A stretch of 64,000 nt of DNA from a bacterium (GCA_043811915.1 JBDRMS010000005.1:41300-105299); one strand, 5' to 3'. Shown: positions 3,798 through 59,850, counted from the stretch's first letter. Notes: generated by a model not told the origin, from the sequence alone. A program made the numbers and translations.

Positions 3798-4915
3798 AAA
3801 TTATTTCTACTTGTTTTAATTACAGATGAATTAACTAATCCCTCGCTCAACTGTGTTGTTATTGTATCCTTAATTGTTATTTTAGTTACATCCTTAAGTA
3901 TCTTCCCGTCAGCTCCGCGCGTAATACTATAGCCCCTTTTCAGTGTTTGTTGCGGCGATAGCGAGCCCAACATACGCTGCAGTTGAATTATTTTTTGTTG
4001 GGTAGTTTGTAAGCGATTCCTTAAAGTATAACTAACAATTTTAACTGCTCCCTCAATAGCTGCACCTCGCGTTTTTATCTGGTCGATTAGAGCATTAGCC
4101 AATCCCTTATGCATTCCTTCAACTTCCCGTTTAATTTCCTCGCGCGATCGCACCAGTAGCTCAGCCGCGTTGCTGGGAGTGGAAGCCCTTACATCCGCCG
4201 CCAATTCAGCCAATGTTATATCCCTCTCGTGTCCCACCCCGACAATAATGGGAGTTCGCGATGACGCCACAGCCCGCACTACAGACTCATCATTAAAGGC
4301 CTGCAAATCCTCCAAACTCCCTCCGCCGCGCACCAACACGATCGCGTCCAGATTATTAAGGCCGGCATTGGCGGTCTTGAGGGCTTCAATAATTTGGCGG
4401 GGGGCGTCTTCGCCTTGCACTTGCGTATGAATAAATGAAATCGTCAAGCCTCCCATGCGAGCCTGCAGCACTTTCAAAAAATCTGCGTAGGCCGCCGCCT
4501 CGCGAGATGTAATCAGTGCGACGTGTCGGGGAAATCGCGGCAATATCCGTTTTCGCTCGGCTGCAAACATACCCTCGGCCATTAATTTTTTTCTCAACAA
4601 TTCAAACGCGCGTTTGAGCGACCCCTCGCCGGCCGCCTGCACTGACTTTAAATTAAAACTGAACCCCCATTTTTGTGTCAGTCTTGGTCTGCCCGTCACC
4701 TGCACCATCATGCCATTTTCAATTTCCGTCTTCAGGTCCCAAACTGTCATAAAACATCGGACATTGCTTTCTTTGTCTTTCAATGTAAACCGTACCCACT
4801 TATTTCCGCTGATATTAAACTCATCTACCTCCCCCTCTACCATCACCCCGTCAAAAACAATTAAATCATCATCAACAGCGCTGACAAATTCTGTCACCGA
4901 AAGCGCCTTATTCAT
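3794..4915 (-). CDS. xseA: exodeoxyribonuclease VII large subunit
   Basis: 373 aa with an N-terminal OB-fold region and the motif 'LITS-x-x-AAA-x-xD ... DAIVL-x-RGGGS-x-EDL-x-xFN-x-E-x-x-VRAV ... IGHE-x-D-x-TL-x-E-x-xAD-x-RA-x-TPS-x-AAE' typical of XseA. Confidence 0.9.
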   Translation of the reverse strand: MNKALSVTEFVSAVDDDLIVFDGVMVEGEVDEFNISGNKWVRFTLKDKESNVRCFMTVWDLKTEIENGMMVQVTGRPRLTQKWGFSFNLKSVQAAGEGSLKRAFELLRKKLMAEGMFAAERKRILPRFPRHVALITSREAAAYADFLKVLQARMGGLTISFIHTQVQGEDAPRQIIEALKTANAGLNNLDAIVLVRGGGSLEDLQAFNDESVVRAVASSRTPIIVGVGHERDITLAELAADVRASTPSNAAELLVRSREEIKREVEGMHKGLANALIDQIKTRGAAIEGAVKIVSYTLRNRLQTTQQKIIQLQRMLGSLSPQQTLKRGYSITRGADGKILKDVTKITIKDTITTQLSEGLVNSSVIKTSRNNL

Positions 4916-30345: not shown

Positions 30346-30391
30346 ATACCAATATTCACCGTCCATACGCCGCCTAACAGCATTTTCAACC

Positions 30392-31375
30392 CTAAGGGTT
30401 GGAAAACATATGTATGGCGATGTGCTCGCGCAAACGGATTATTATATCGTCCAGGGTCAGGCTTGGTTTGAAGCCGATTAGCTTTTGCAGCTTGGAAATA
30501 TCCGGCACGCGTTTTGTCACGTCCTCGAACCCCTGCTTAAACGCCTCCTCATAAGGCACATAAACTTTTTCTGAACGGCTGCCCGTTAGCTCAATCACCC
30601 TGTCCGCCAGTTCATCAATAGTTACGCTATTTGTACTCCCCACGTTGTATACCTCGCCATTTGCCTGATCACTTTCCATTAACTGGTGTAATGCTCCCAC
30701 CACATCACTAACGTGGCAAAAACACCGCGATTGCTGGCCGTCACCATGAATAGTCAGAGGGTTTCCCGCTATGGCCTGTTTAACAAATGTCGGCAGCACC
30801 ATGCCGTAGTGCGAACTCTGTCTCTCTCCCGTCGTATTAAACAAACGAACTACAGTTACCGGCAGTTCCCTCTCAATGTGATAGGCAAAAGCCATGTATT
30901 CATCCAGTGCCTTGGAACAGGCGTACGACCAGCGTCCTTTTGTTGTCGGGCCCATAGCCAGGTCATCTTCTTCAGAGAATACTTCCCGGCATCCTCGCCC
31001 ATAGACCTCTGACGTGGATGTTAGCAGCACCTTTTTACCCAACTCACTGGCCACCGCCAGCACCGCTTCCCCGCCTCTAACATTATTTTCAATTGACTCT
31101 ACCAGCTCTTCCACCACCAGCTTCACTCCAACTGAAGCCGCCAGATGATACACCACATCAACTCTTTGGATTAGTTGTGCCAGTAAGTTGCGGTCCGTAA
31201 CACTGCCGTGAACAAAGTCGAGATGCGCATTAGATCTTAAGTGTGAAATATTCCCCAGCGACCCTGTGGATAAGTTGTCAAGTATATATACAATGTTCCC
31301 GTTTTGCAGTAAATGTTCGGCTAAGTGGGAACCAATAAATCCTGCCCCTCCCGTAATTAATACTCTAGTTCCCAT
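30392..31375 (-). CDS. NAD-dependent epimerase/dehydratase (extended SDR)
   Basis: N-terminal VLITGGAGFIGSHL, catalytic YACSKALDEY (Y-x-x-x-K), and NTTGERQ. Confidence 0.85.
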   Translation of the reverse strand: MGTRVLITGGAGFIGSHLAEHLLQNGNIVYILDNLSTGSLGNISHLRSNAHLDFVHGSVTDRNLLAQLIQRVDVVYHLAASVGVKLVVEELVESIENNVRGGEAVLAVASELGKKVLLTSTSEVYGRGCREVFSEEDDLAMGPTTKGRWSYACSKALDEYMAFAYHIERELPVTVVRLFNTTGERQSSHYGMVLPTFVKQAIAGNPLTIHGDGQQSRCFCHVSDVVGALHQLMESDQANGEVYNVGSTNSVTIDELADRVIELTGSRSEKVYVPYEEAFKQGFEDVTKRVPDISKLQKLIGFKPSLTLDDIIIRLREHIAIHMFSNP

Positions 31376-34632: not shown

Positions 34633-36287
34633 CAAAATTCAGCGCGTGGGAACAACTAAACCTCGCCGCCATTCTAGTCATCCTGGGTTTTCCTGTCCTG
34701 CTACTTCTTGAAATTACGATTACTCGCCAGCTGCATCCAGCTCTTGTTTTAATAAATCTCGCCGCCGCCTCCCTCTTCTTTTTGATTTTTATCTACCAGC
34801 GCAGCTCCGCCAAAGAAGGCCTGGACCGCATCCCCGTCTTTCCTCTCCTGTGCATTTTTTTTCTACAACTGATCATTATTACTGCCATATTTTCTGCCTA
34901 CTTGGCCCTGTCCGATGTTGATCCTTACCACTGGATAAAAGAATACAATCAAAACTTCAACACCGGCCCGCTTAATAAACTGCCCCAGCGATCGCTTTTT
35001 CATACTCTAATATATACTCTCGATCAAATTCCTGGCATCAGAGCCGAGATCATATTTAAATATATTATCCCCCTGCTATCACTGCTTTGCCTAATCCCGG
35101 CCTGGCTGGTAGCCCGGCGATTCCGCCGGCCAACGCACCAGATACTTTGGCTCCTGGTCCCTCTCCTTAGCCCCTCGCTTATCATCCACTCTCAAATGGG
35201 TACACCCCAGGCTGTACTTCTCGTTCTGACAATATTTTTCGTTTTCCTGCTCATATATTCCCGCTTAACCCAAAACAGGTTTTGGCATTACCTGGCCGGT
35301 GCCATTATGCTCCTGGCTATCCCCATTCACGGCTTGGCTCTACTCATGTTTACTAGCTGGCTTGTCGCCACCGCCTGGCGTCACTCCAAGCACAATTATA
35401 TCCTCCTTCTTTTACTGCCCATCGCCATACTGGCCGCGCCATATCTTAAAGCCTATCTTCCTCAAGTATTTAGCGACATTCACCTTAATTTATCCTTCCC
35501 TGCGACATTCACCACTATCGACAACGTACCCAACGGCTGGCCTGGGCTAACCGGCCTCATCCAATACTATGCTTTCTATTTGGGATTAGTCGTGCCAGTC
35601 ATTTTGCTCATCAACATCTTTCTTTTCTTCAAACACGCCGGCTATCGCCGTCAAATTACACAACTAATAGATAACAGCTCTACTTTAACTCTTGTCATTA
35701 TGTTCGCCGGCTTTTTCTCAATCGCCGAAGTTTTGCCTCGCTTCTTCAACATTGTTATTCTGCCCGATCGCGCCTGGCTGTTTGCCGATCTAGCAGCCAC
35801 GGTGTTCTTTTTACCCCTGTTCCAGTACCGGTCTGACAAAAATAAATTCCTGTCTTTCCTGCTTATATTGTTTTTCATCATCAACATCGGCGGCGCCCTG
35901 TACATCAACAATCTTAAAAAGAATCTTTTGCCCGATTACGCTGTTAATGCCGCACTTTGGCTTAACAGCAACCTTCCCGCCAACAGTGCGGTTATGCTAA
36001 ATCGCAAACCTGAATATCTTGACCTCTATACGGCGAGGATCTCTCTAATCCAACTGCCCGATGATTTTTTCTGTCTTGGGTCGGACGACATAGTTGCTTT
36101 TTCACAGCAGGAACCAACCCTCTACCTCCTTTTCTTAAAGCCAAACACCTCAAGTCCATATCTTCAGCGTCCCTGGCACGAACCACTAGACACGCAGTGC
36201 AGTAAACCTGGCCCTGGCAACGAACTCGGTCGCTTCCAGCAAATATATAATGACGGCGGCCAGGCCATAATCTGGAAAATACTATGA
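34629..36287 (+). CDS. polytopic membrane protein, putative GT-C-fold glycosyltransferase completing a three-component module
   Basis: 552 aa. About 11 TM helices are followed by a roughly 130-aa C-terminal soluble domain. Together with the upstream GT2 and DUF2304 genes this reproduces the GtrA/GtrB/Gtr(type) arrangement. Confidence 0.45.
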   Translation: MTKFSAWEQLNLAAILVILGFPVLLLLEITITRQLHPALVLINLAAASLFFLIFIYQRSSAKEGLDRIPVFPLLCIFFLQLIIITAIFSAYLALSDVDPYHWIKEYNQNFNTGPLNKLPQRSLFHTLIYTLDQIPGIRAEIIFKYIIPLLSLLCLIPAWLVARRFRRPTHQILWLLVPLLSPSLIIHSQMGTPQAVLLVLTIFFVFLLIYSRLTQNRFWHYLAGAIMLLAIPIHGLALLMFTSWLVATAWRHSKHNYILLLLLPIAILAAPYLKAYLPQVFSDIHLNLSFPATFTTIDNVPNGWPGLTGLIQYYAFYLGLVVPVILLINIFLFFKHAGYRRQITQLIDNSSTLTLVIMFAGFFSIAEVLPRFFNIVILPDRAWLFADLAATVFFLPLFQYRSDKNKFLSFLLILFFIINIGGALYINNLKKNLLPDYAVNAALWLNSNLPANSAVMLNRKPEYLDLYTARISLIQLPDDFFCLGSDDIVAFSQQEPTLYLLFLKPNTSSPYLQRPWHEPLDTQCSKPGPGNELGRFQQIYNDGGQAIIWKIL

Positions 36288-37498
36288 AATTATTAATCTT
36301 TTCACCTTATTATCCCCCTCACATAGGCGGCCTTCAGAGTCATGCCGAGCAATTTAATCAGCACATGTCAAAAACCGGAGCTTACATCACAGTTTTTACC
36401 AGTCAGCTGCCCCGCTCCGCTCCCACCAGCGAAAATAAAAATAGAGTAACAATAATCCGCTTTCCCGCCTGGGAAATAATTCCCAACTACCCTCTGCCGA
36501 AGTTCTGGCAACCTGCTTTCTGGCTTGAGTGGCAACAACTAAAAAAGCAACGTTTTGACATTGTCATCTCTCGCACCCGCTTCTTTTCCACTTCCCTGTT
36601 CGCATTGATCTACGCCAAGTGGGACAATATCCCCTGGCTGCACATAGAGCACGGTTCAGATTTTGTCAGCCTGGCCAACCCCGTCACCAGGCTAACAGCT
36701 CATATTTATGACTACACTTTGGGTCGCTTAATTCTCCATCTGGCCGACCAGGTTGTTGCCAACTCCAAGTCCTCCGCCGACTTTGTCAAACGACTTTCTG
36801 GCCGTACTGCCGCAGTCATCTACCGTGGTGTCAATCAGGACGCAATCATAAATACAGCCCCGGATCAAAACATTAAGAACATCCACAAAAATAAAATTAT
36901 TATTACTTTTATTGGCCGGCTCATCGATGGCAAAGGCGTCGACGATCTTCTGCGAGCCCTTAAGATAGTATCAACTCCGCAAACATCACCAGCCATTTCG
37001 GTGTTGATGGAGAAACACCAAGGGTTGAGGAGGCGCGATTTTCACTGCCTCATTATTGGCGACGGTTCCAAACGCGAATCTCTCAACAAACTAGCCAGGC
37101 AGTTAGGCATCAGCAAACGCATTACTTTTCTCGGCCAGCAAGGGTTCAGTCAATCAGTATCTATTTTAAAAACCTCTGACATTTTTATAAACCCCAGCCA
37201 CACCGAAGGTTTGCCCACTTCCGTCATCGAAGCCGCCTTATGCAAGACTGCTATTATCGCCACTAATGTCGGCGGCACTCCGGAAATCGTCACCAATAAC
37301 ACAAGCGCCTACCTCGTCCAACCAAAACACCCAAGTATTTTGGCAGACAGATTAATTGATCTTATTCAGAATCCCGCCAAGCGTCAGCTCCTGTCAGAAC
37401 ACGCCTACCGAGAAGTAATAAACAAATTTTCCTGGCCGGCCAGCACCGCCGCCTACAACAAAATCCTTAAACATCTCATTCAAACACCAGGTGTTTGA
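36284..37498 (+). CDS. GT4 glycosyltransferase; C-terminal codons and stop supplied by a REP element
   Basis: SHTEGLPTSVIEAALCKTAIIATNVGGTPEIV. The last 8 codons and the stop (HLIQTPGV-TGA) lie inside the 23-nt REP palindrome. Confidence 0.8.
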   Translation: MKLLIFSPYYPPHIGGLQSHAEQFNQHMSKTGAYITVFTSQLPRSAPTSENKNRVTIIRFPAWEIIPNYPLPKFWQPAFWLEWQQLKKQRFDIVISRTRFFSTSLFALIYAKWDNIPWLHIEHGSDFVSLANPVTRLTAHIYDYTLGRLILHLADQVVANSKSSADFVKRLSGRTAAVIYRGVNQDAIINTAPDQNIKNIHKNKIIITFIGRLIDGKGVDDLLRALKIVSTPQTSPAISVLMEKHQGLRRRDFHCLIIGDGSKRESLNKLARQLGISKRITFLGQQGFSQSVSILKTSDIFINPSHTEGLPTSVIEAALCKTAIIATNVGGTPEIVTNNTSAYLVQPKHPSILADRLIDLIQNPAKRQLLSEHAYREVINKFSWPASTAAYNKILKHLIQTPGV

Positions 37499-37500
37499 AT
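37478..37500. repeat. REP-like palindromic element ATTCAAACACCAGGTGTTTGAAT (copy 1)
   Basis: 23-nt near-perfect palindrome with a 9-bp stem and CCAGG loop. It is identical to the copy at 38847..38869. Confidence 0.8.
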
Positions 37501-37664
37501 TGCAACTAAAAGCCACGTAGCTGCAATATTCTACATATAGCTGCTCTATTTTCTACAACAAGTCACTTGACGTCCCTCCCCCTTCTGGTACACAAAAGTA
37601 GTTCCCTTCCCAATTAACCCCCTTTTTTTCTCGACCAGTGCCAAAAAAGCACGGCGGACAAATC

Positions 37665-38069
37665 ATGCCCAAAAGCATAAAACCAGATCCTAGCTTCGCC
37701 GAATGCGAAAAAGTAAAGTGTCCAAAGTGTGGTGGCCCAAATCACGCGTTTTTTGATTGATGTTGTCACTGCGGCTATTCTTTTCGTCGAGATCACTTCA
37801 TCGAAGAGGAAGAAACAAACGAGGGTACGATCGTTCGCCATGGTCACTTTAGTACTATAACCGGAGAAAAGAAAGTGGCTGCGGATGGGCTCTTCTCCTG
37901 TTTACAGTTGGAATTACATTGGCCATCAGCAAAGTACTCTCAATGTAGTGGCTTTGAATCCGGAAGCGAGCGGATCAACATTATCATCCATCCACAACTT
38001 TTGCGCGAATGGGTGATAGTTAGATCGTTCTATTTAACCGCCACCATCACCCAGGCGGTTTTTTTCTGA
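37665..38069 (+). pseudogene. zinc-ribbon-like ORF interrupted by an in-frame TGA (pseudogene or readthrough candidate)
   Basis: One frame reads MPKSIKPDPSFAECEKVKCPKCGGPNHAFFD-TGA-CCHCGYSFRRDHFIEEEE.... The 4-Cys ribbon (CPKC...CCHC) is split by the stop at 37758-37760. Confidence 0.3.
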
Positions 38070-38160
38070 GCCTGTCGAAGAGCTACCTCACACTACACTC
38101 ACTATTTATTTGTCATTCCCCTTCTTGAGGTTTTTCTACTTTCTGGGAGCTACGAGACTT

Positions 38161-38817
38161 CTAGGCGTCGTCCTCAAGAAGTAAGTGCTTAATTTCCGCC
38201 AGCTCGCGTGCATAATCAGCATGATCAGAAACAAACGCCCTGTATTCGCCCGGCGGCATCATGCTTCGTATAAGCCCCGTGTGACATCTATGATATTTCG
38301 ATTTCCACCCGATATATTCCGACAGCGAGGACCACTCATAAATAAAAGGGTCTTTAGTCATACCTACTACATAGGGGTTGAGATGAATATATCGACTAAC
38401 ATGCAACAGTTGTTCATCTCCATCCACAGCAACCGCCCGAAAGGGACCAGCAAATAGTGGGCCAGTTCGTTTATGGCGAATGTTAAAGTACCGTGCATAA
38501 CTATTAAGCAATCGCTGGAGATAAGCTGACGTCCCACAATCATAATTTTCTTTGAGTAACAGATGAACATGATTCGTCATTAAGCAATAACACAAGAGGT
38601 CAACTGGCCCTGTGCTAACATCCGTCTTTTGCTGTTCCTGCTTAAGTCGCTTTGCAGTTGAATAACTCTGAGTAATTCCACGGGGTAAGCAATGAATTAT
38701 CAAAGCCAGAAACCGCTCCCTATCCTCATCGTCAATAAAAATCTTGCGCTGCCCAACACTACGCGCACAAACATGATACACTTCACCTGGTGCAAAATCT
38801 ACATACCGATACCCCAT
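38161..38817 (-). CDS. REP-associated tyrosine transposase (RAYT, IS200/IS605-like Y1 HUH transposase)
   Basis: The N-terminal RAYT signature is GEVYHVCARSVGQRKIFIDDEDRERFLALI (G-x-YH[VI]-x-x-R ... IF-x-D-x-ED ... FL-x-L). The HUH motif is MTNHVHLLL. The catalytic Tyr context is LLHVSRYIHLNPY. Confidence 0.8.
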   Translation of the reverse strand: MGYRYVDFAPGEVYHVCARSVGQRKIFIDDEDRERFLALIIHCLPRGITQSYSTAKRLKQEQQKTDVSTGPVDLLCYCLMTNHVHLLLKENYDCGTSAYLQRLLNSYARYFNIRHKRTGPLFAGPFRAVAVDGDEQLLHVSRYIHLNPYVVGMTKDPFIYEWSSLSEYIGWKSKYHRCHTGLIRSMMPPGEYRAFVSDHADYARELAEIKHLLLEDDA

Positions 38818-38846
38818 ATCTTCAGTCTACAACCTAGATAAAGGCA

Positions 38847-38869
38847 ATTCAAACACCAGGTGTTTGAAT
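38847..38869. repeat. REP-like palindromic element ATTCAAACACCAGGTGTTTGAAT (copy 2)
   Basis: Exact copy of the 37478..37500 sequence, 30 nt upstream of the RAYT start and 40 nt upstream of asnB. Confidence 0.8.
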
Positions 38870-38909
38870 AATGTTTTACGCCTGGCACTTTTCACTTTAA
38901 GCTTTACTC

Positions 38910-40799
38910 ATGTGTGGGATAGCCGGAAAGATCAGTTTTAGCAATCGGCCAGTTCAGGAGTGCGATATTAAGCGCATGACGGATGTCCTGGCTCACCGCG
39001 GCCCGGACGACCAGGGTATTTATGTCTCTCCCAACCAAAACATCGGGCTTGGCCACCGGCGGCTCTCGATTATTGATTTGTCTAAACAGGGCCACCAACC
39101 CATGCCTTACCTGAATCGTTACTGGATTACTTACAACGGCGAAATCTATAACTACCAGGTTAAACGTAAGCTGTTAGAAAAACAGGGCTACTCTTTCAGA
39201 TCCCAAACTGACACCGAAGTCATTCTTGCCTTGTACGACAAGTTTGGTATCGATTGTCTACAACACCTGCGCGGGATGTTTGCGTTTGCCATTTATGACC
39301 AAAAAACTAATCAACTGTTCTGCGCTCGTGATCGCCTGGGACAAAAACCATTTAAATATTATAGCGACAGTCGTGTTTTTATTTTTGCCTCCGAACTCAA
39401 GGCTATTCTAACCCAAAGCGAATATCACAAAGAACCGGATTATTTAGCCATTCACCACTACCTCACTCTTCAATACACCCCTGCCCCCTACACCGGCTTT
39501 AAGGATATAAAAAAACTGGAGCCAGCCCACTACTTAATTGTCGATCTCAACACCGGCAAAATTACTAACCAGCCATACTGGCAACTTAATTTCTCTAATA
39601 AGTTAAACCTGTCCGAGCAGCAATGGTGCAACGCTATCATGGAAAAATTGGATGAAGCCACGCGTCTGCGCCTGGTTTCCGACGTGCCTTTGGGCGCTTT
39701 TCTATCCGGCGGCATAGACTCCAGCGCCATTGTCGGCTTCATGAGCCGCCACACCGCCAGGCCCGTCAAAACATTTTCTATCGGCTTTAAAGAACAAGCC
39801 TACAATGAACTGCCCTTTGCCCAAGCAGTCGCCGATCATTTTCATACCGACCACACCAACTTTATTGTCGAACCTCAAGCTCTCGATATTCTCCCCCCTC
39901 TGGTTAAGCAATACGAAGAACCCTACGCCGACAGTAGCGCCCTGCCAACCTACATCGTAAGCAAATTAACCCGCCAGCACGTTACCGTGGCACTGAATGG
40001 CGACGGGGGAGATGAAAACTTTGGTGGGTATTCCCGTTACAGTATCCAGAAATTCGCCTTACTTTATGAGAAATTTCGCTGGCTTAATGCTGTCATAGCC
40101 TTACCCATCAGTAAATTGGCGGTCGATAAAATACATAATACATTTTTTCAACGCGCTCATCGTTTCTCTGCCACCATACCACAAGACTATACGCATCGTT
40201 ATGTTAATTATGTTTGTTACTTTACCAATGAAGCTAAACGCCAGCTCTACGACCCAACCATGCTTAAAAAAGTATGGTCCTATGACTCGTACAACATTGT
40301 AGCCAATCAGTTTCGTCGAGCGCAAGCTGCCGACAAACTGGATCAGACCATGTACGCCGACATAAAAACTATTTTAGTTGATGATTTTCTTACCAAGTGG
40401 GATATTGCCTCCATGGCCGTATCACTGGAAGCCCGCTCCCCCTTTCTTGATCATAAGTTCATGGAGCTGGCCGCCAAAATACCGAGCCGCCTTAAAATAA
40501 AAGGCGCCAACGATCGTAAATATATTTTTAAAAAGGCTCTGGCCGGCTTTTTACCACCCGACATTATTAATCGTCCCAAGCGGGGTTTCCAGGTACCTCT
40601 CGATATGTGGTTTAAAGGCAAGCTCGGCGTTTTTGCTCAAGACACCCTGCTTTCCAAAAGGGCACTTAACAGAAACCTTTTTAATCAGTCAGTCGTAGCC
40701 GATATTTTGCACACTCACCAGCGCACCAACATAAATAACTCCACCTATATTTGGTCATTACTCACCCTTGAGTTATGGTTCAGACAATACTTCGACTAA
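38910..40799 (+). CDS. asnB: asparagine synthetase (glutamine-hydrolysing) / WbpS-like amidotransferase
   Basis: N-terminal MCGIAGKIS (Cys2 Ntn amidotransferase), the PP-loop SGGIDSS, and a length of 629 aa. Confidence 0.85.
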   Translation: MCGIAGKISFSNRPVQECDIKRMTDVLAHRGPDDQGIYVSPNQNIGLGHRRLSIIDLSKQGHQPMPYLNRYWITYNGEIYNYQVKRKLLEKQGYSFRSQTDTEVILALYDKFGIDCLQHLRGMFAFAIYDQKTNQLFCARDRLGQKPFKYYSDSRVFIFASELKAILTQSEYHKEPDYLAIHHYLTLQYTPAPYTGFKDIKKLEPAHYLIVDLNTGKITNQPYWQLNFSNKLNLSEQQWCNAIMEKLDEATRLRLVSDVPLGAFLSGGIDSSAIVGFMSRHTARPVKTFSIGFKEQAYNELPFAQAVADHFHTDHTNFIVEPQALDILPPLVKQYEEPYADSSALPTYIVSKLTRQHVTVALNGDGGDENFGGYSRYSIQKFALLYEKFRWLNAVIALPISKLAVDKIHNTFFQRAHRFSATIPQDYTHRYVNYVCYFTNEAKRQLYDPTMLKKVWSYDSYNIVANQFRRAQAADKLDQTMYADIKTILVDDFLTKWDIASMAVSLEARSPFLDHKFMELAAKIPSRLKIKGANDRKYIFKKALAGFLPPDIINRPKRGFQVPLDMWFKGKLGVFAQDTLLSKRALNRNLFNQSVVADILHTHQRTNINNSTYIWSLLTLELWFRQYFD

Positions 40800-57085: not shown

Positions 57086-59008
57086 ATGCTTTCATCCATA
57101 TCCATAATAATACCCACTTACAACCGAGCTAATTACCTGAAAACACTAATTAACCAGCTTCTAACCCAATCACAGCCTCCTCATGAAATCATCATCGTCG
57201 ACGACCATTCAACGGATAACACAGTTAATTATCTAAAAAACCTCACTCGGCAATCTCCGCGCGTTAAATACATACTCAACCAGGGCCATCATCAAAGAGA
57301 CGCAAAAAAGACCGGGCTAAAATATGCCACCGGAGAATATATTGGCTTTTTCGACGACGATGCCGAAATCGAAGACAACGACTTTCTAGCCAGGCTTATC
57401 CCCCATCTCAACCCCGGACGCGTCATTCAAGCCAAAGTTATTCTCGAACAAATGGGCCGGGTAAATCGCCCCGACATAACCTGGAAAGATATTCTAGCCA
57501 CCCGTCCTTTCCCCATCCTGGAACTTGTCACCTCAAACTTTAACTGCGGCACAAAACGCCGAACTATTTTTCCTCTAATCGAATGGGGTAACTTCTGGCA
57601 TCACTCTCTCAAAGACTACTTTATTGACGACAACCTCATCAAAGACGGCTACGGCGAAAGCTACAGTGCATCCCTCAAGCTATACCGCGCCGGCGTCAAG
57701 CTCTTAATTGAACCCTCGCTCGTTATTCGTCATATTGGCGCTCCCACCGGCGGCTCACACAAATTCAACAAAAAAAACATGCTGCGCGATTTCACTAAAT
57801 TTCACTACGGCTACTTCTACAACATGATTTATCTGCATCGCCGCTTTTTTTCCCGCTGGGTTTGGCTGTGGTTGCCATTTTTCGTCCTCAAATCTCTCAT
57901 CGCTCTGACTATAAACTGGAACTTAAAAGGGTGGTATGAATATGCATATAAACCAATCGCGGCGGCCGGGAAAACCCCGGAGGTCGCCATACCCAAGCTG
58001 TTTGTCTGGCAAGGCGCCTTCCGTGGCGGCGCCGAATACATCACTTTATCTGCCGCCAAACACTTCTCTCGACAAGGCCTCGACGTCACCCTTGGCGTCT
58101 ACAAGAAAAATCCTTCAATGCCAATCAAACAAATAGTTTTCCCAGAATATAAACTAATCCCCCAGTCTTTTCGTTCTTTTATTAACTCACTTAATTTCCG
58201 CCTCCGCTACGCCAAAAACTTCTCCGCCGTCTATGCCCACACTTTGGGCGCCTGGAAAACCAAAAACAATAAAGTTTTCATCCACGACGCCGCCGACCTG
58301 GACGATAAGCTATCCCAAACTGTCAGCTTCTGGCAAAAACTAGCTTATCGCCTCTGGCGTTTTCTTTATTTTCACCTCTCCCTCAAACCTGCCACCGCTA
58401 TCTTCTCCGCCACACCCGAATTCTCCTCTTATCTGCGCCGCCACGGCCTTGGTTCCAAACACATTGCCCCCAGTGGTTCTTTCTACAACGATCGCATCCA
58501 CCGTTACATCAAACGTACTCTGCCCATCAGACCAATAAAGCTTATCTTTATTGGCGATTACCATTCTCCTGCTAAAAATTTTTCACTAGTCAAAAAAATA
58601 TTCTATAAAAATAATGATTACTTTGTCACTATCACCGGCGGCAACCAGCCATATTGCGATGCCAACTTCAACTACCCGGGCTGGCTTAGTCCAGAAGAGC
58701 TTCAAGCTGCCTTAGCTAAATCGCACATTTTTTTTATGCCCTCCACGTCCGAAGGCTTTTCCATCGCTTTACTCGAAGCCCTGGCCACTGGTATTCCCTG
58801 CCTCGTCAACCAAAGCGTCATTCCTTCACCTCTAAAAACTGTCAGTAATATAGTCCCATATCAATCAGTCAGTGAAGTTCTGCCCAAAATCAATACCACT
58901 ATAAATAATTATTCCCACTACAACATCTTTGACCCTCGTCTCAAACAATTTGCAGAAGAAACCGTCCTCCGAAAAGAATGCAATATAATTAAAAGATACG
59001 TCGTCTAA
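57086..59008 (+). CDS. bifunctional glycosyltransferase (N-terminal GT2 fused to C-terminal GT4-like domain)
   Basis: N-terminus ISIIIPTYNRANYL ... IIIVDDHSTDNT ... FFDDDAE. C-terminus FMPSTSEGFSIALLEALATGIPCLVN (E-x7-E). Length 640 aa. Confidence 0.7.
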   Translation: MLSSISIIIPTYNRANYLKTLINQLLTQSQPPHEIIIVDDHSTDNTVNYLKNLTRQSPRVKYILNQGHHQRDAKKTGLKYATGEYIGFFDDDAEIEDNDFLARLIPHLNPGRVIQAKVILEQMGRVNRPDITWKDILATRPFPILELVTSNFNCGTKRRTIFPLIEWGNFWHHSLKDYFIDDNLIKDGYGESYSASLKLYRAGVKLLIEPSLVIRHIGAPTGGSHKFNKKNMLRDFTKFHYGYFYNMIYLHRRFFSRWVWLWLPFFVLKSLIALTINWNLKGWYEYAYKPIAAAGKTPEVAIPKLFVWQGAFRGGAEYITLSAAKHFSRQGLDVTLGVYKKNPSMPIKQIVFPEYKLIPQSFRSFINSLNFRLRYAKNFSAVYAHTLGAWKTKNNKVFIHDAADLDDKLSQTVSFWQKLAYRLWRFLYFHLSLKPATAIFSATPEFSSYLRRHGLGSKHIAPSGSFYNDRIHRYIKRTLPIRPIKLIFIGDYHSPAKNFSLVKKIFYKNNDYFVTITGGNQPYCDANFNYPGWLSPEELQAALAKSHIFFMPSTSEGFSIALLEALATGIPCLVNQSVIPSPLKTVSNIVPYQSVSEVLPKINTTINNYSHYNIFDPRLKQFAEETVLRKECNIIKRYVV

Positions 59009-59010
59009 CA

Positions 59011-59039
59011 GCTATTCAAACCTCCGAGGTTTGAATAGC
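59011..59039. repeat. REP-related palindrome GCTATTCAAACCTCCGAGGTTTGAATAGC between convergent stop codons
   Basis: Perfect 14-nt arms. It shares the ATTCAAAC...GTTTGAAT arms with the RAYT-flanking REPs and sits 2 nt after one stop codon and 4 nt before the other. Confidence 0.65.
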
Positions 59040-59043
59040 TCTG

Positions 59044-59850
59044 TTAGCGCCGGTGCCAGGCGCTCAGGTGATAGAACGTTGTTTTGGGCAATAAGTTAAC
59101 TAATAACTCCCTTAAATAAACCGGCAAGTTAAACCAAAAACCAGGATATTTATTGCGATATTGATAAGCAATTTTTAAAAAAGACAAAAACTGCCGCATG
59201 TTTTTTTTCGAAGTCACGCCACGCGGGTTTACTCTCTGTTGTATATAGACATCCGGCAAGTTTGCCAGCTGATATTTCAAACCAATTCGCAGCCACAATT
59301 CAAAATCCTGGGCATAGCAATATTGCTCATCATACAATCCCACTCTATCCAATGCCGATTTGCGGATTAATACACTGGAGTGAGGAAATTGATTACGTTC
59401 CATCATGTGCCGCCTGATTGTTTTATTTTCAGTCTCATAATACAACCGGTACAGTTCCCTGCCATCAGCATCTATCACAATATTCTGCACGCCACACACT
59501 CCGATATTGTCATTCTCCTGCATATATAGCACTTGTTTTACCAGCTTGTCTTTATCTACCCACACGTCATCGTCATCAATCCGCGCAATATATTCACCAC
59601 GCGCTAATCTAATACCGCGATTAAGAGATTTTGTTAGCCCTAATCTCCTCTCATTGCGTACAATTCGGATTCGTTGATCACTAAAGCCGGCAACAATATC
59701 CACCGCCTTGTCAGTCGAAGCATCATCAACAACGATCAACTCAAAATTTCCGTAAGTTTGTTTTAGAACGCTGCTTACCGCCTCACTAACAAATCGCGAC
59801 CCGTTGCGGGTCGCCATAACAACCGAAACTAGAGGTTCTCCTTGTACCAT
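59044..59850 (-). CDS. GT2 glycosyltransferase
   Basis: VSVVMATRNGSRFV ... LIVVDDASTDK ... ARIDDDDVW. Confidence 0.8.
   Translation of the reverse strand: MVQGEPLVSVVMATRNGSRFVSEAVSSVLKQTYGNFELIVVDDASTDKAVDIVAGFSDQRIRIVRNERRLGLTKSLNRGIRLARGEYIARIDDDDVWVDKDKLVKQVLYMQENDNIGVCGVQNIVIDADGRELYRLYYETENKTIRRHMMERNQFPHSSVLIRKSALDRVGLYDEQYCYAQDFELWLRIGLKYQLANLPDVYIQQRVNPRGVTSKKNMRQFLSFLKIAYQYRNKYPGFWFNLPVYLRELLVNLLPKTTFYHLSAWHRR

Follow-up and report, generated by a model that had tools for sequence, protein, structure and literature searches.

A 64,000-nt stretch of bacterial DNA (GCA_043811915.1 JBDRMS010000005.1:41300-105299; hereafter the window, with coordinates counted from its first letter) carries a predicted single-strand DNA nuclease gene of the REP-associated tyrosine transposase (RAYT) kind, where REP stands for repetitive extragenic palindrome, and this gene is flanked on both sides by the same 23-nt hairpin. 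We consider it likely that the locus is a REPtron-like unit, that is, a RAYT/TnpA_REP class 2 gene bracketed by inverted copies of its own hairpin, in an Andersenbacteria-like genome. The palindromes are read as the cognate hairpins of the RAYT-like gene because they travel and co-vary with it across genomes and paralogs. The system is low-copy and represents a known kind of arrangement, old and conserved, in an undescribed lineage; it is not an IS200/IS605 element.

A Y1 nuclease gene between two identical hairpins

The gene is a 218-aa open reading frame (ORF) at 38161..38817 on the minus strand, predicted from the reading frame, a Pfam match and a fold match to encode a RAYT-like (class 2 TnpA_Y1) HUH/Tyr single-strand DNA nuclease. 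Its N-terminal stretch reads PGEVYHVCAR..IFIDDEDRERFLAL, and the PGE.YH...R motif is nearly invariant in an alignment of 38 homologs. In the HUH motif NHVHLL (N82-L87; 38557..38574, minus strand) N82, H83, H85 and L87 are invariant in those homologs, and by analogy H83 and H85 would be the metal ligands. The presumed catalytic residue, Tyr143 (codon 38389-38391), lies in the motif RYIHLNP (38374..38394, minus strand), where R142, Y143, I144, H145, N147 and P148 are invariant; the nearly or fully invariant positions of the 38-member alignment are thereby Y14, H15, R19, F27, D32 and R35 besides those of the two motifs (N82, H83, H85, L87, R142-H145, N147 and P148). YIHLNP (residues 143-148, unchanged across the 38 homologs) fits the Y---NP tyrosine motif that defines class 2, the home of the known TnpA_REP proteins (Quentin et al. 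2018, PMC6006769).

With the Pfam profile PF01797 (Y1_Tnp) the ORF scored 29.9 bits, above the cut-off of 23. An AlphaFold2 model built on the 38-homolog alignment (pLDDT 88, pTM 0.87) matched the folds of 4ER8, 2XM3 and 2VJV, and its top match among solved structures was 4ER8_A (E 5.8e-6, TM 0.70 on the target, 178 columns, 14% identity), the E. coli REP-associated tyrosine transposase with its REP hairpin, which ranked above the ISDra2, IS608 and IS200 transposases. In the model about 60 aa at the C-terminus form an additional helical region, and a Pfam scan found no helix-turn-helix-type domain in the C-terminus of the protein. There are more than 1,200 homologs, the named ones coming from Candidatus Andersenbacteria. 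Assignment of the ORF to the Y1 HUH proteins of the RAYT/TnpA_REP class is supported by these data.

Exact copies of the 23-mer ATTCAAACACCAGGTGTTTGAAT lie at 37478-37500 and 38847-38869, and no third site was found in the 64-kb window with up to 3 mismatches allowed; 100 dinucleotide-preserving shuffles gave 0 matches. The 23-mer reads as a perfect palindrome, its 11-bp stem closed by a 1-nt loop, and folds as single-stranded DNA with -7.9 to -8.2 kcal/mol (z = -4.1 to -4.5), and when the two copies are extended inward they form a 26-nt inverted repeat (..GAATTGC / GCAATTC..). The upstream copy (38847..38869) starts 52 nt before the ATG of the RAYT-like gene and lies 40 nt upstream of the start of the neighbouring asparagine-synthase-like amidotransferase (AsnB) gene, and in orthologs and paralogs too the upstream hairpin is found at -48 to -61. 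The downstream copy (37478..37500) begins at +661 in the window, compared to 14-26 nt past the RAYT stop in relatives, because an insert of about 640 bp, described below, displaces it.

The unit is flanked by a GT4 glycosyltransferase (GT) gene (36284..37498, plus strand), whose 3' end runs into the downstream hairpin, and by the AsnB gene (38910..40799, plus strand), which lies beyond the upstream hairpin and is syntenic in two related loci, L008 and L004. In the window and in L008 alike, the GT4 gene takes its final seven codons and its TGA stop (..IQTPGV*) from the hairpin itself, which is therefore now part of the neighbouring coding sequence. The same arrangement was recovered from two independent assemblies of the strain (L001 and L002) and from other genomes. 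A tRNA scan of the window found none, and Rfam gave nothing for the window at gathering thresholds or for 37400-38950 at E values up to 1. The first-pass annotation of this DNA had described the identical palindromes as well as the ORF with its N-terminal RAYT motif, NHVHLL and tyrosine, had placed them between glycan genes and had proposed PF01797 as a check; all of this was borne out.

The hairpins follow the gene through relatives and paralogs

A close relative, P0002 (locus L008), with 85% protein identity, has the same synteny and both hairpins, and as the upstream loop has a T where the downstream loop has an A, the two form a perfect inverted repeat. The same 23-mer stands at -48 and +26 of P0007 (L091/L092), a protein with 62% identity encoded between dprA and mfd, so that the hairpin sequence is conserved at 23/23 positions between proteins at this level of identity. 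P0004 (L089), with 64% identity, is encoded beside a tRNA 3' end and a major facilitator superfamily (MFS) gene and has ATTCTAACACCAGGTGTTAGAAT on both sides, which differs from ATTCAAACACCAGGTGTTTGAAT by the compensatory change of one stem pair; a third copy of ATTCTAACACCAGGTGTTAGAAT lies 1.1 kb off, in the next intergenic region. The hairpins of P0003 and P0005 are in decay. Altogether, clear hairpin copies stand on either side of the gene in 5 of 9 close orthologs and paralogs; in the remaining 4 they are degenerate, half-sized or truncated by the contig end. The association extends further: in 25 of 50 distant metagenomic relatives with enough flank (all at no more than 43% identity, and taken from among the matches listed) the 150-nt upstream and 150-nt downstream flanks share an exact match of at least 14 nt, with a different sequence at each locus and mostly palindromic, while a control pairing the flanks of different loci gave a match in 0%.

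The ribosomal protein S3 of a 162-kb contig carrying two of the paralogs has, among named close matches, only Andersenbacteria, and the host lineage is Andersenbacteria-like within the Candidate Phyla Radiation (CPR)/Patescibacteria, outside the Proteobacteria in which the first-pass annotation had noted such systems to be best described. The source samples are SRR27458547/8, and the Logan contigs examined for paralogs stem from the same two samples. Six family members are numbered within 500 consecutive NCBI accessions (MFH1353734-MFH1354232) with consistent contig sizes: P0020 (MFH1353734, longest contig 112 kb), P0033 (MFH1353807, 34 kb), the window protein P0001 (MFH1353951, 124 kb), P0052 (MFH1354103, 162 kb), P0026 (MFH1354130, sharing the 162-kb contig with P0052) and P0100 (MFH1354232, 86 kb). 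They appear to belong to one metagenome-assembled genome (MAG), which would then encode no fewer than 6 diverged paralogs. Identity to the window protein is 53-59%, and the number is high for a genome that is presumably small and streamlined.

Each of the four other paralogs examined (L095, L097, L099 and L101) comes with a 23-nt hairpin type of its own, placed at -51 to -61 and +16 to +18. The hairpin of P0026, ATTCCAACCCTAAGGGTTGGAAT, occurs on both sides, as does that of P0100, ATTTAACACT(T/A)AGTGTTAAAT; P0052 has ATTCCGAAGATAATCTTCGGAAT inside a 20-bp stem, with a full copy downstream only and a half copy upstream; P0020 carries TTCTAAACCTTAGCTTTAGAAAT upstream and downstream, and as this hairpin is imperfect, the inverted orientation of the two copies is visible. 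Distinct types available among the paralogs include ATTCAAACACC.., ATTCCAACCCT.. and ATTCCGAAGAT... Taken together, these comparisons of aligned loci show the gene and both hairpins behaving as one evolutionary unit, in which the hairpin is lineage-specific and co-varies with the protein.

Some relatives show further features. In L067 (6125, 6432), L042 (1341), L051 (4663), L066 (1283), L023 (3126) and L022 (6179, 6200) the flanking palindrome also occurs in frame inside an intact RAYT ORF, with hot spots at aa 50-69, before the HuH motif, and at aa 146-163, just past YIHxNP; the window's own RAYT gene has no internal hairpin copy. At three independent loci (L095 ~4574-4609, L101 ~327-362 and L089 ~1927-1963) the 5' half of the hairpin is tandemly duplicated directly before the full hairpin, as in ACATTCCAACCCTAC|ATTCCAACCCTAAGGGTTGGAAT, which could have been left by cleavage and rejoining or by slippage at the hairpin. 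Four longer relatives of 261-286 aa (L043, L055, L062 and L084) have inverted flank sequences in place of hairpins, three of which start GGGGTCAG.. or GGGGACG.., the fourth, in L062, being TATAGGGTCAGGTC; these resemble the GGGG[AT][CG]A[CG] repeats of the subclass 2.1 TIRYT elements.

Age of the unit and the insertion sequence alternative

The first-pass annotation had taken the presence of a RAYT gene at this locus as a sign of recent mobility, a claim that the comparison with L008 does not support. The gene order there is the same as in the window (GT, hairpin, gene, hairpin, AsnB), the hairpins are conserved at 22-23 of 23 positions and the spacer to the ATG is about 72% identical. The RAYT-like protein is 85% identical in amino acids (dN/dS 0.11) and its neighbours are more diverged, with 69% for GT (dN/dS 0.18), 77% for the AsnB N-terminus (dS saturated) and 64% for the upstream membrane protein. 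A syntenic ortholog at 85% with more diverged neighbours, and a dN/dS of 0.11, indicate a unit that is older than the split of the lineages and kept by purifying selection. Among proteins about 62-64% identical the genomic contexts differ, and therefore the unit relocates over long time scales, which agrees with the description of RAYTs by Bertels et al. The housekeeping-like traits of no near-identical copies, vertical inheritance and purifying selection are all present, and for annotation this means that the label 'transposase' is here no sign of recent mobility.

The strongest of the alternatives, which we nevertheless regard as improbable, is that the locus is an autonomous IS200/IS605-like insertion sequence (IS) that recently transposed into the glycan gene cluster. 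It would account for the occurrence of the gene with both hairpins in unrelated contexts (dprA/mfd, tRNA and MFS, and ruvX/GT gene) and for at least six family members in one small genome, and the protein shares its fold with the TnpA proteins of IS608 and ISDra2, together with HUH/Tyr chemistry as judged by motif and hairpins at both ends of the unit. The paralogs, however, are not products of recent transposition, given an identity to the window protein of only 53-59% and hairpins that differ, and the ortholog at the same site with its slow evolution speaks against a recent arrival. The TnpA proteins of IS200/IS605 (subclass 1.1) have Y---Q and about 150 aa and occur in many near-identical copies, often with tnpB and with imperfect subterminal hairpins in the same orientation (PMC6006769), whereas the window protein has 218 aa with YIHLNP and only diverged paralogs, and no tnpB was found in the RAYT locus. 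That hairpin units also stand alone at gene ends likewise counts against such an element.

Solo hairpins and the regulatory alternative

Two such solo units occur in the window. The one at 59010..59040, AGCTATTCAAACCTCCGAGGTTTGAATAGCT, lies between the stops of convergent GT genes and is a 31-nt perfect palindrome, the longest in the window; it agrees with the RAYT hairpin in the outer 8 bp and departs from it by two compensatory changes in the inner 3 bp. An extension of its stem (~59005-59046) takes in the stop codons of both flanking GT genes. The second, TTTTCAACCCTAAGGGTTGGAAA at 30383..30405, overlaps the end of an epimerase gene (30392-31375, minus strand), which is convergent with a methyltransferase ORF, and supplies its stop codon; the inner 7 bp equal those of the P0026 hairpin. 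The 18-nt 5' flanks of the two solos, ATACGCCGCCTAACAGCA at 30383 and ATACGTCGTCTAACAGCT at 59010, are identical at 15 of 18 positions. Homology of the adjoining genes was rejected as the source of this common flank, those genes being unrelated. Both solos have the spacing of the upstream side of the RAYT-like gene (hairpin, 13 nt, then CGTAT), and from this and the common flank it follows that the dispersed unit is the hairpin with about 18 nt of flank. This dispersal is REP-like behaviour at low copy number.

A lone hairpin, ATTCAAACACCGGGTGTTTGAAT, occurs at 7732-7754 of L004 (DATDVI010000021.1, a Candidatus Andersenbacteria MAG) as the sole match in that genome, about 130 nt upstream of an orthologous AsnB (71% aa identity) and with a syntenic methyltransferase; there is no adjoining RAYT, and a different gene stands on the other side. 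This hairpin either remained behind when a RAYT was lost or is a solo unit.

Positions of this kind might suggest that the palindromes serve the host in gene regulation, as bidirectional terminators or as operators of a dimeric regulator for the glycan genes, and flank a Y1 gene by chance. The GT stop falls within the left hairpin, AsnB begins a short way downstream of the right one, the lone copy in L004 is upstream of AsnB where there is no RAYT, the solo units stand between convergent genes, and a terminator scan called 38847-38869 terminator-like. We find this explanation very hard to credit, since the same 23-mer flanks the orthologous gene at L091, a locus without glycan genes, and the examined paralogs have their own palindromes at matching distances from start and stop. 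Moreover the sequence, beyond the structure, is conserved at 62% protein identity, and no T-run follows the left copy. The narrower candidates of an AsnB operator or a GT terminator were rejected, as the gene has these hairpins beside it in unrelated contexts too. That the repeat arises by chance or from faulty assembly is next to impossible, given the shuffles and the independent assemblies cited above, its one favourable sign being a short contig of the same strain that breaks near the left hairpin.

Comparison with known systems and points against a REPtron-like unit

The best-known REPtron, that of E. coli TnpA_REP (4ER8; subclass 2.2 of Quentin et al. 2018 and Group 2 of Bertels et al. 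2017), shares with the window the Y1 HUH fold and Y---NP, cognate hairpins flanking the gene in inverted orientation and solo hairpins at gene ends. In both systems the gene is present in few copies, evolves slowly and is inherited vertically over short time scales. It differs in that the window protein is only 14% identical in the structural alignment, has 218 aa with the extra C-terminal helical region and belongs to a CPR host. The window hairpin is a perfect 11-bp palindrome with neither the bulge nor the GT[AG]G foot of E. coli REPs, and there are a handful of copies compared to tens to hundreds of REPs in E. coli.

By its motifs, compared by eye, the window protein is more like subclass 2.1 (Group 1 of Bertels, or TIRYT), which is defined by NHVH, Y[IV]HLNP, SS and a length above 200 aa (PMC6006769 Table 1); it has NHVH, Y[IV]HLNP, SS (WSS 162-164), more than 200 aa and a C-terminal extension, and its more distant relatives have FQ at the W position. 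Members of subclass 2.1 are reported to have no REP hairpins and instead to carry terminal inverted repeats GGGG[AT][CG]A[CG] (PMC6006769, PMC5581495), whereas no such repeat was found in 37001-39400 of the window, where the hairpins are present. The palindromes inside the ORFs of distant relatives recall subclass 2.4, to which in-frame REP insertion, between HuH and Y, has been described as unique (PMC6006769). In that subclass, however, the motif is YIxNNP, and these relatives have YIH[LR]NP with insertions before HuH and just past the Y motif.

Several observations weigh against a REPtron-like unit and are brought together here. The RAYT identity proposed by the first-pass annotation holds as far as Pfam, Y---NP and the 4ER8 fold are concerned, but the NCBIfam RAYT equivalog NF047646 (REP_Tyr_transpos) was missed, with 39.9 bits against a cut-off of 80, and a profile of the 38 homologs, compared by sequence with the PDB, gave no significant match to a solved RAYT or TnpA. 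The motifs would place the protein nearest to subclass 2.1/Group 1, which is reported to lack REPs. The GT[AG]G foot of canonical REPs is missing at all four window hairpins; atypical REPs without it are known in subclasses 2.6 and 3. Neither is the hairpin high-copy: ATTCAAACACCAGGTGTTTGAAT has only its two flanking copies in 64 kb, two variant solo units were found in the approximately 113 kb of this genome examined, both in the window, and the 21-nt pattern TTCAAACACCNGGTGTTTGAA never occurred more than once per genome in 185,579 GTDB species representatives (5 single matches, one of them, L004, relevant), a set to which the source MAG evidently does not belong. The placing of the paralogs in one MAG is drawn from accession numbering and sample identity and not from an assembly record. 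Among ten hairpin variants, double changes affect 9 of the 11 pairs in the stem, and pairing holds in 99% of cells compared to 26-53% in slid registers, but these variants came from palindrome searches and are thus an ascertained set. The weight therefore lies on a 23-nt hairpin of equal geometry recurring equally far from each paralog.

Conserved flanks, a possible promoter and a proposed mechanism

Across the paralogs the gene-proximal flanks of the hairpins are conserved with a mean of 0.70 bit per position, compared to 0.22 for the outer flanks. On the downstream side the stop codon lies 16-17 nt from the hairpin, with ..CT.TAG..GCA at the hairpin foot. On the upstream side the hairpin is followed by 13 nt and then by CGTAT or GTTGT leading into a -10-like box (TATAAT in L099, TATACT in L101, TATTAT in L091 and TAGACT in the window and L008), with the ATG 6-8 nt further on. 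The distal hairpin arm provides TTGAAT 17 nt ahead of the -10-like box (window 38818-38869, minus strand). The spacing of these boxes suggests a leaderless promoter with its -35 element inside the upstream hairpin; a consensus promoter scan did not call this hairpin-overlapping promoter. More tentatively, the overlap of the -35-like box with the hairpin would allow autoregulation by the RAYT.

By analogy with E. coli TnpA_REP and the TnpA proteins of IS608 and ISDra2, the protein would bind the hairpin when it is extruded in single-stranded DNA, for example on the lagging-strand template. It may then cut and rejoin the DNA beside the hairpin by means of Tyr143 and a metal bound by H83 and H85, with the conserved inner flank serving as guide or cleavage site. 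Hairpin units would thereby be maintained and occasionally copied as a hairpin with about 18 nt of flank. On the same analogy, the role of the RAYT may be maintenance of the hairpins, copying of the units or regulation of its own promoter.

A later insertion within the unit

Between the downstream hairpin and the RAYT stop lies a lineage-specific orphan insert of 639-643 bp (37505/37509..38147), overlooked in the first-pass annotation, whose ends are ambiguous by 4 nt (ACTA at 37505-37508, GCTA at 38148-38151). It is absent at L008, where the junction is TGCA|GCTACGAG in the context ..GAATTGCA|GCTACGAGAC.., and it is a later, unrelated insertion within the unit and the only recent event at the locus. 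The L002 contig, from the second sample of the same strain, stops exactly at 37509, which would fit a polymorphism or a repeat at this boundary.

The insert contains a Zn-ribbon-like ORF (CPKC..CCHC; 37665..38069, plus strand) with an in-frame TGA at 37758-37760, and this ORF is probably a pseudogene or non-coding. Recoding of TGA was rejected because TGA terminates 27 of 53 long ORFs in the window. No homologs of the ORF were found in an index of 5.8 billion proteins, nor for residues 33-134 among 1.84 billion representatives, and its zinc-ribbon matches in Pfam were all insignificant. A TnpB remnant (CxxCG..CxxCG..RDH) was considered and not upheld, the only match being an insignificant one to Pfam TNB (E 0.21), with no homologs. 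At the end of the ORF, DNA folding and sequence point to a terminator-like stem, AACCGCC..GGCGGTT with a run of seven Ts (38036..38066, plus strand), which the terminator scan did not call, probably owing to its long loop.

The insert was also tried as a miniature inverted-repeat transposable element (MITE) or palindrome-associated transposable element (PATE) and rejected, having neither terminal inverted repeats nor subterminal hairpins (fold z -0.06 to -1.1) and no second copy; none was found in the fetched loci, and there was no Rfam match. Positions 37515-37527, in reverse complement ATTGCAGCTACGT, equal the ancestral hairpin-to-gene junction as seen in L008 (ATTGCAGCTACGA). This inverted junction copy sits 9 nt within the left end of the insert and hints at an origin by template switch or fold-back.

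Significance for RAYTs and for small genomes

To our knowledge, almost all characterised RAYT/REP systems come from Proteobacteria, Cyanobacteria and Bacteroidetes, and full-text literature searches found no paper linking RAYTs to CPR/Patescibacteria. Some traits of the present system are unusual, namely the low copy number, the many paralogs in a presumably small CPR genome and the hairpins forming gene ends. It offers a tractable case, in which a small protein of 218 aa is paired with an exactly defined, perfect 23-nt hairpin as its putative substrate, and at least 4 sister pairs of protein and hairpin, apparently in one genome, are available for testing how Y1 nucleases read hairpin sequence, with natural covariation and a conserved flank possibly marking the cleavage site. 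The finding also bears on the association with REPs of a RAYT clade that has subclass 2.1-like motifs.

A wider idea, which we put forward tentatively and hold to be doubtful although possible, is that CPR bacteria including Andersenbacteria keep multi-paralog Y1 nucleases in about six copies, each tied to a private hairpin pair at fixed positions (the upstream one across the -35 box of the gene itself, the downstream one 16-17 nt past the stop), with a few dispersed units that supply the stops or C-termini of neighbouring genes. Such a system would serve hairpin-addressed genome maintenance or the shaping of gene ends, rather than acting as a REP amplifier, and its proteins would form a clade that combines 2.1-like motifs with REPs, one that present classifications take to lack REPs. 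The locus also shows that in very small genomes the 3' ends of neighbouring genes can be formed by hairpin units.

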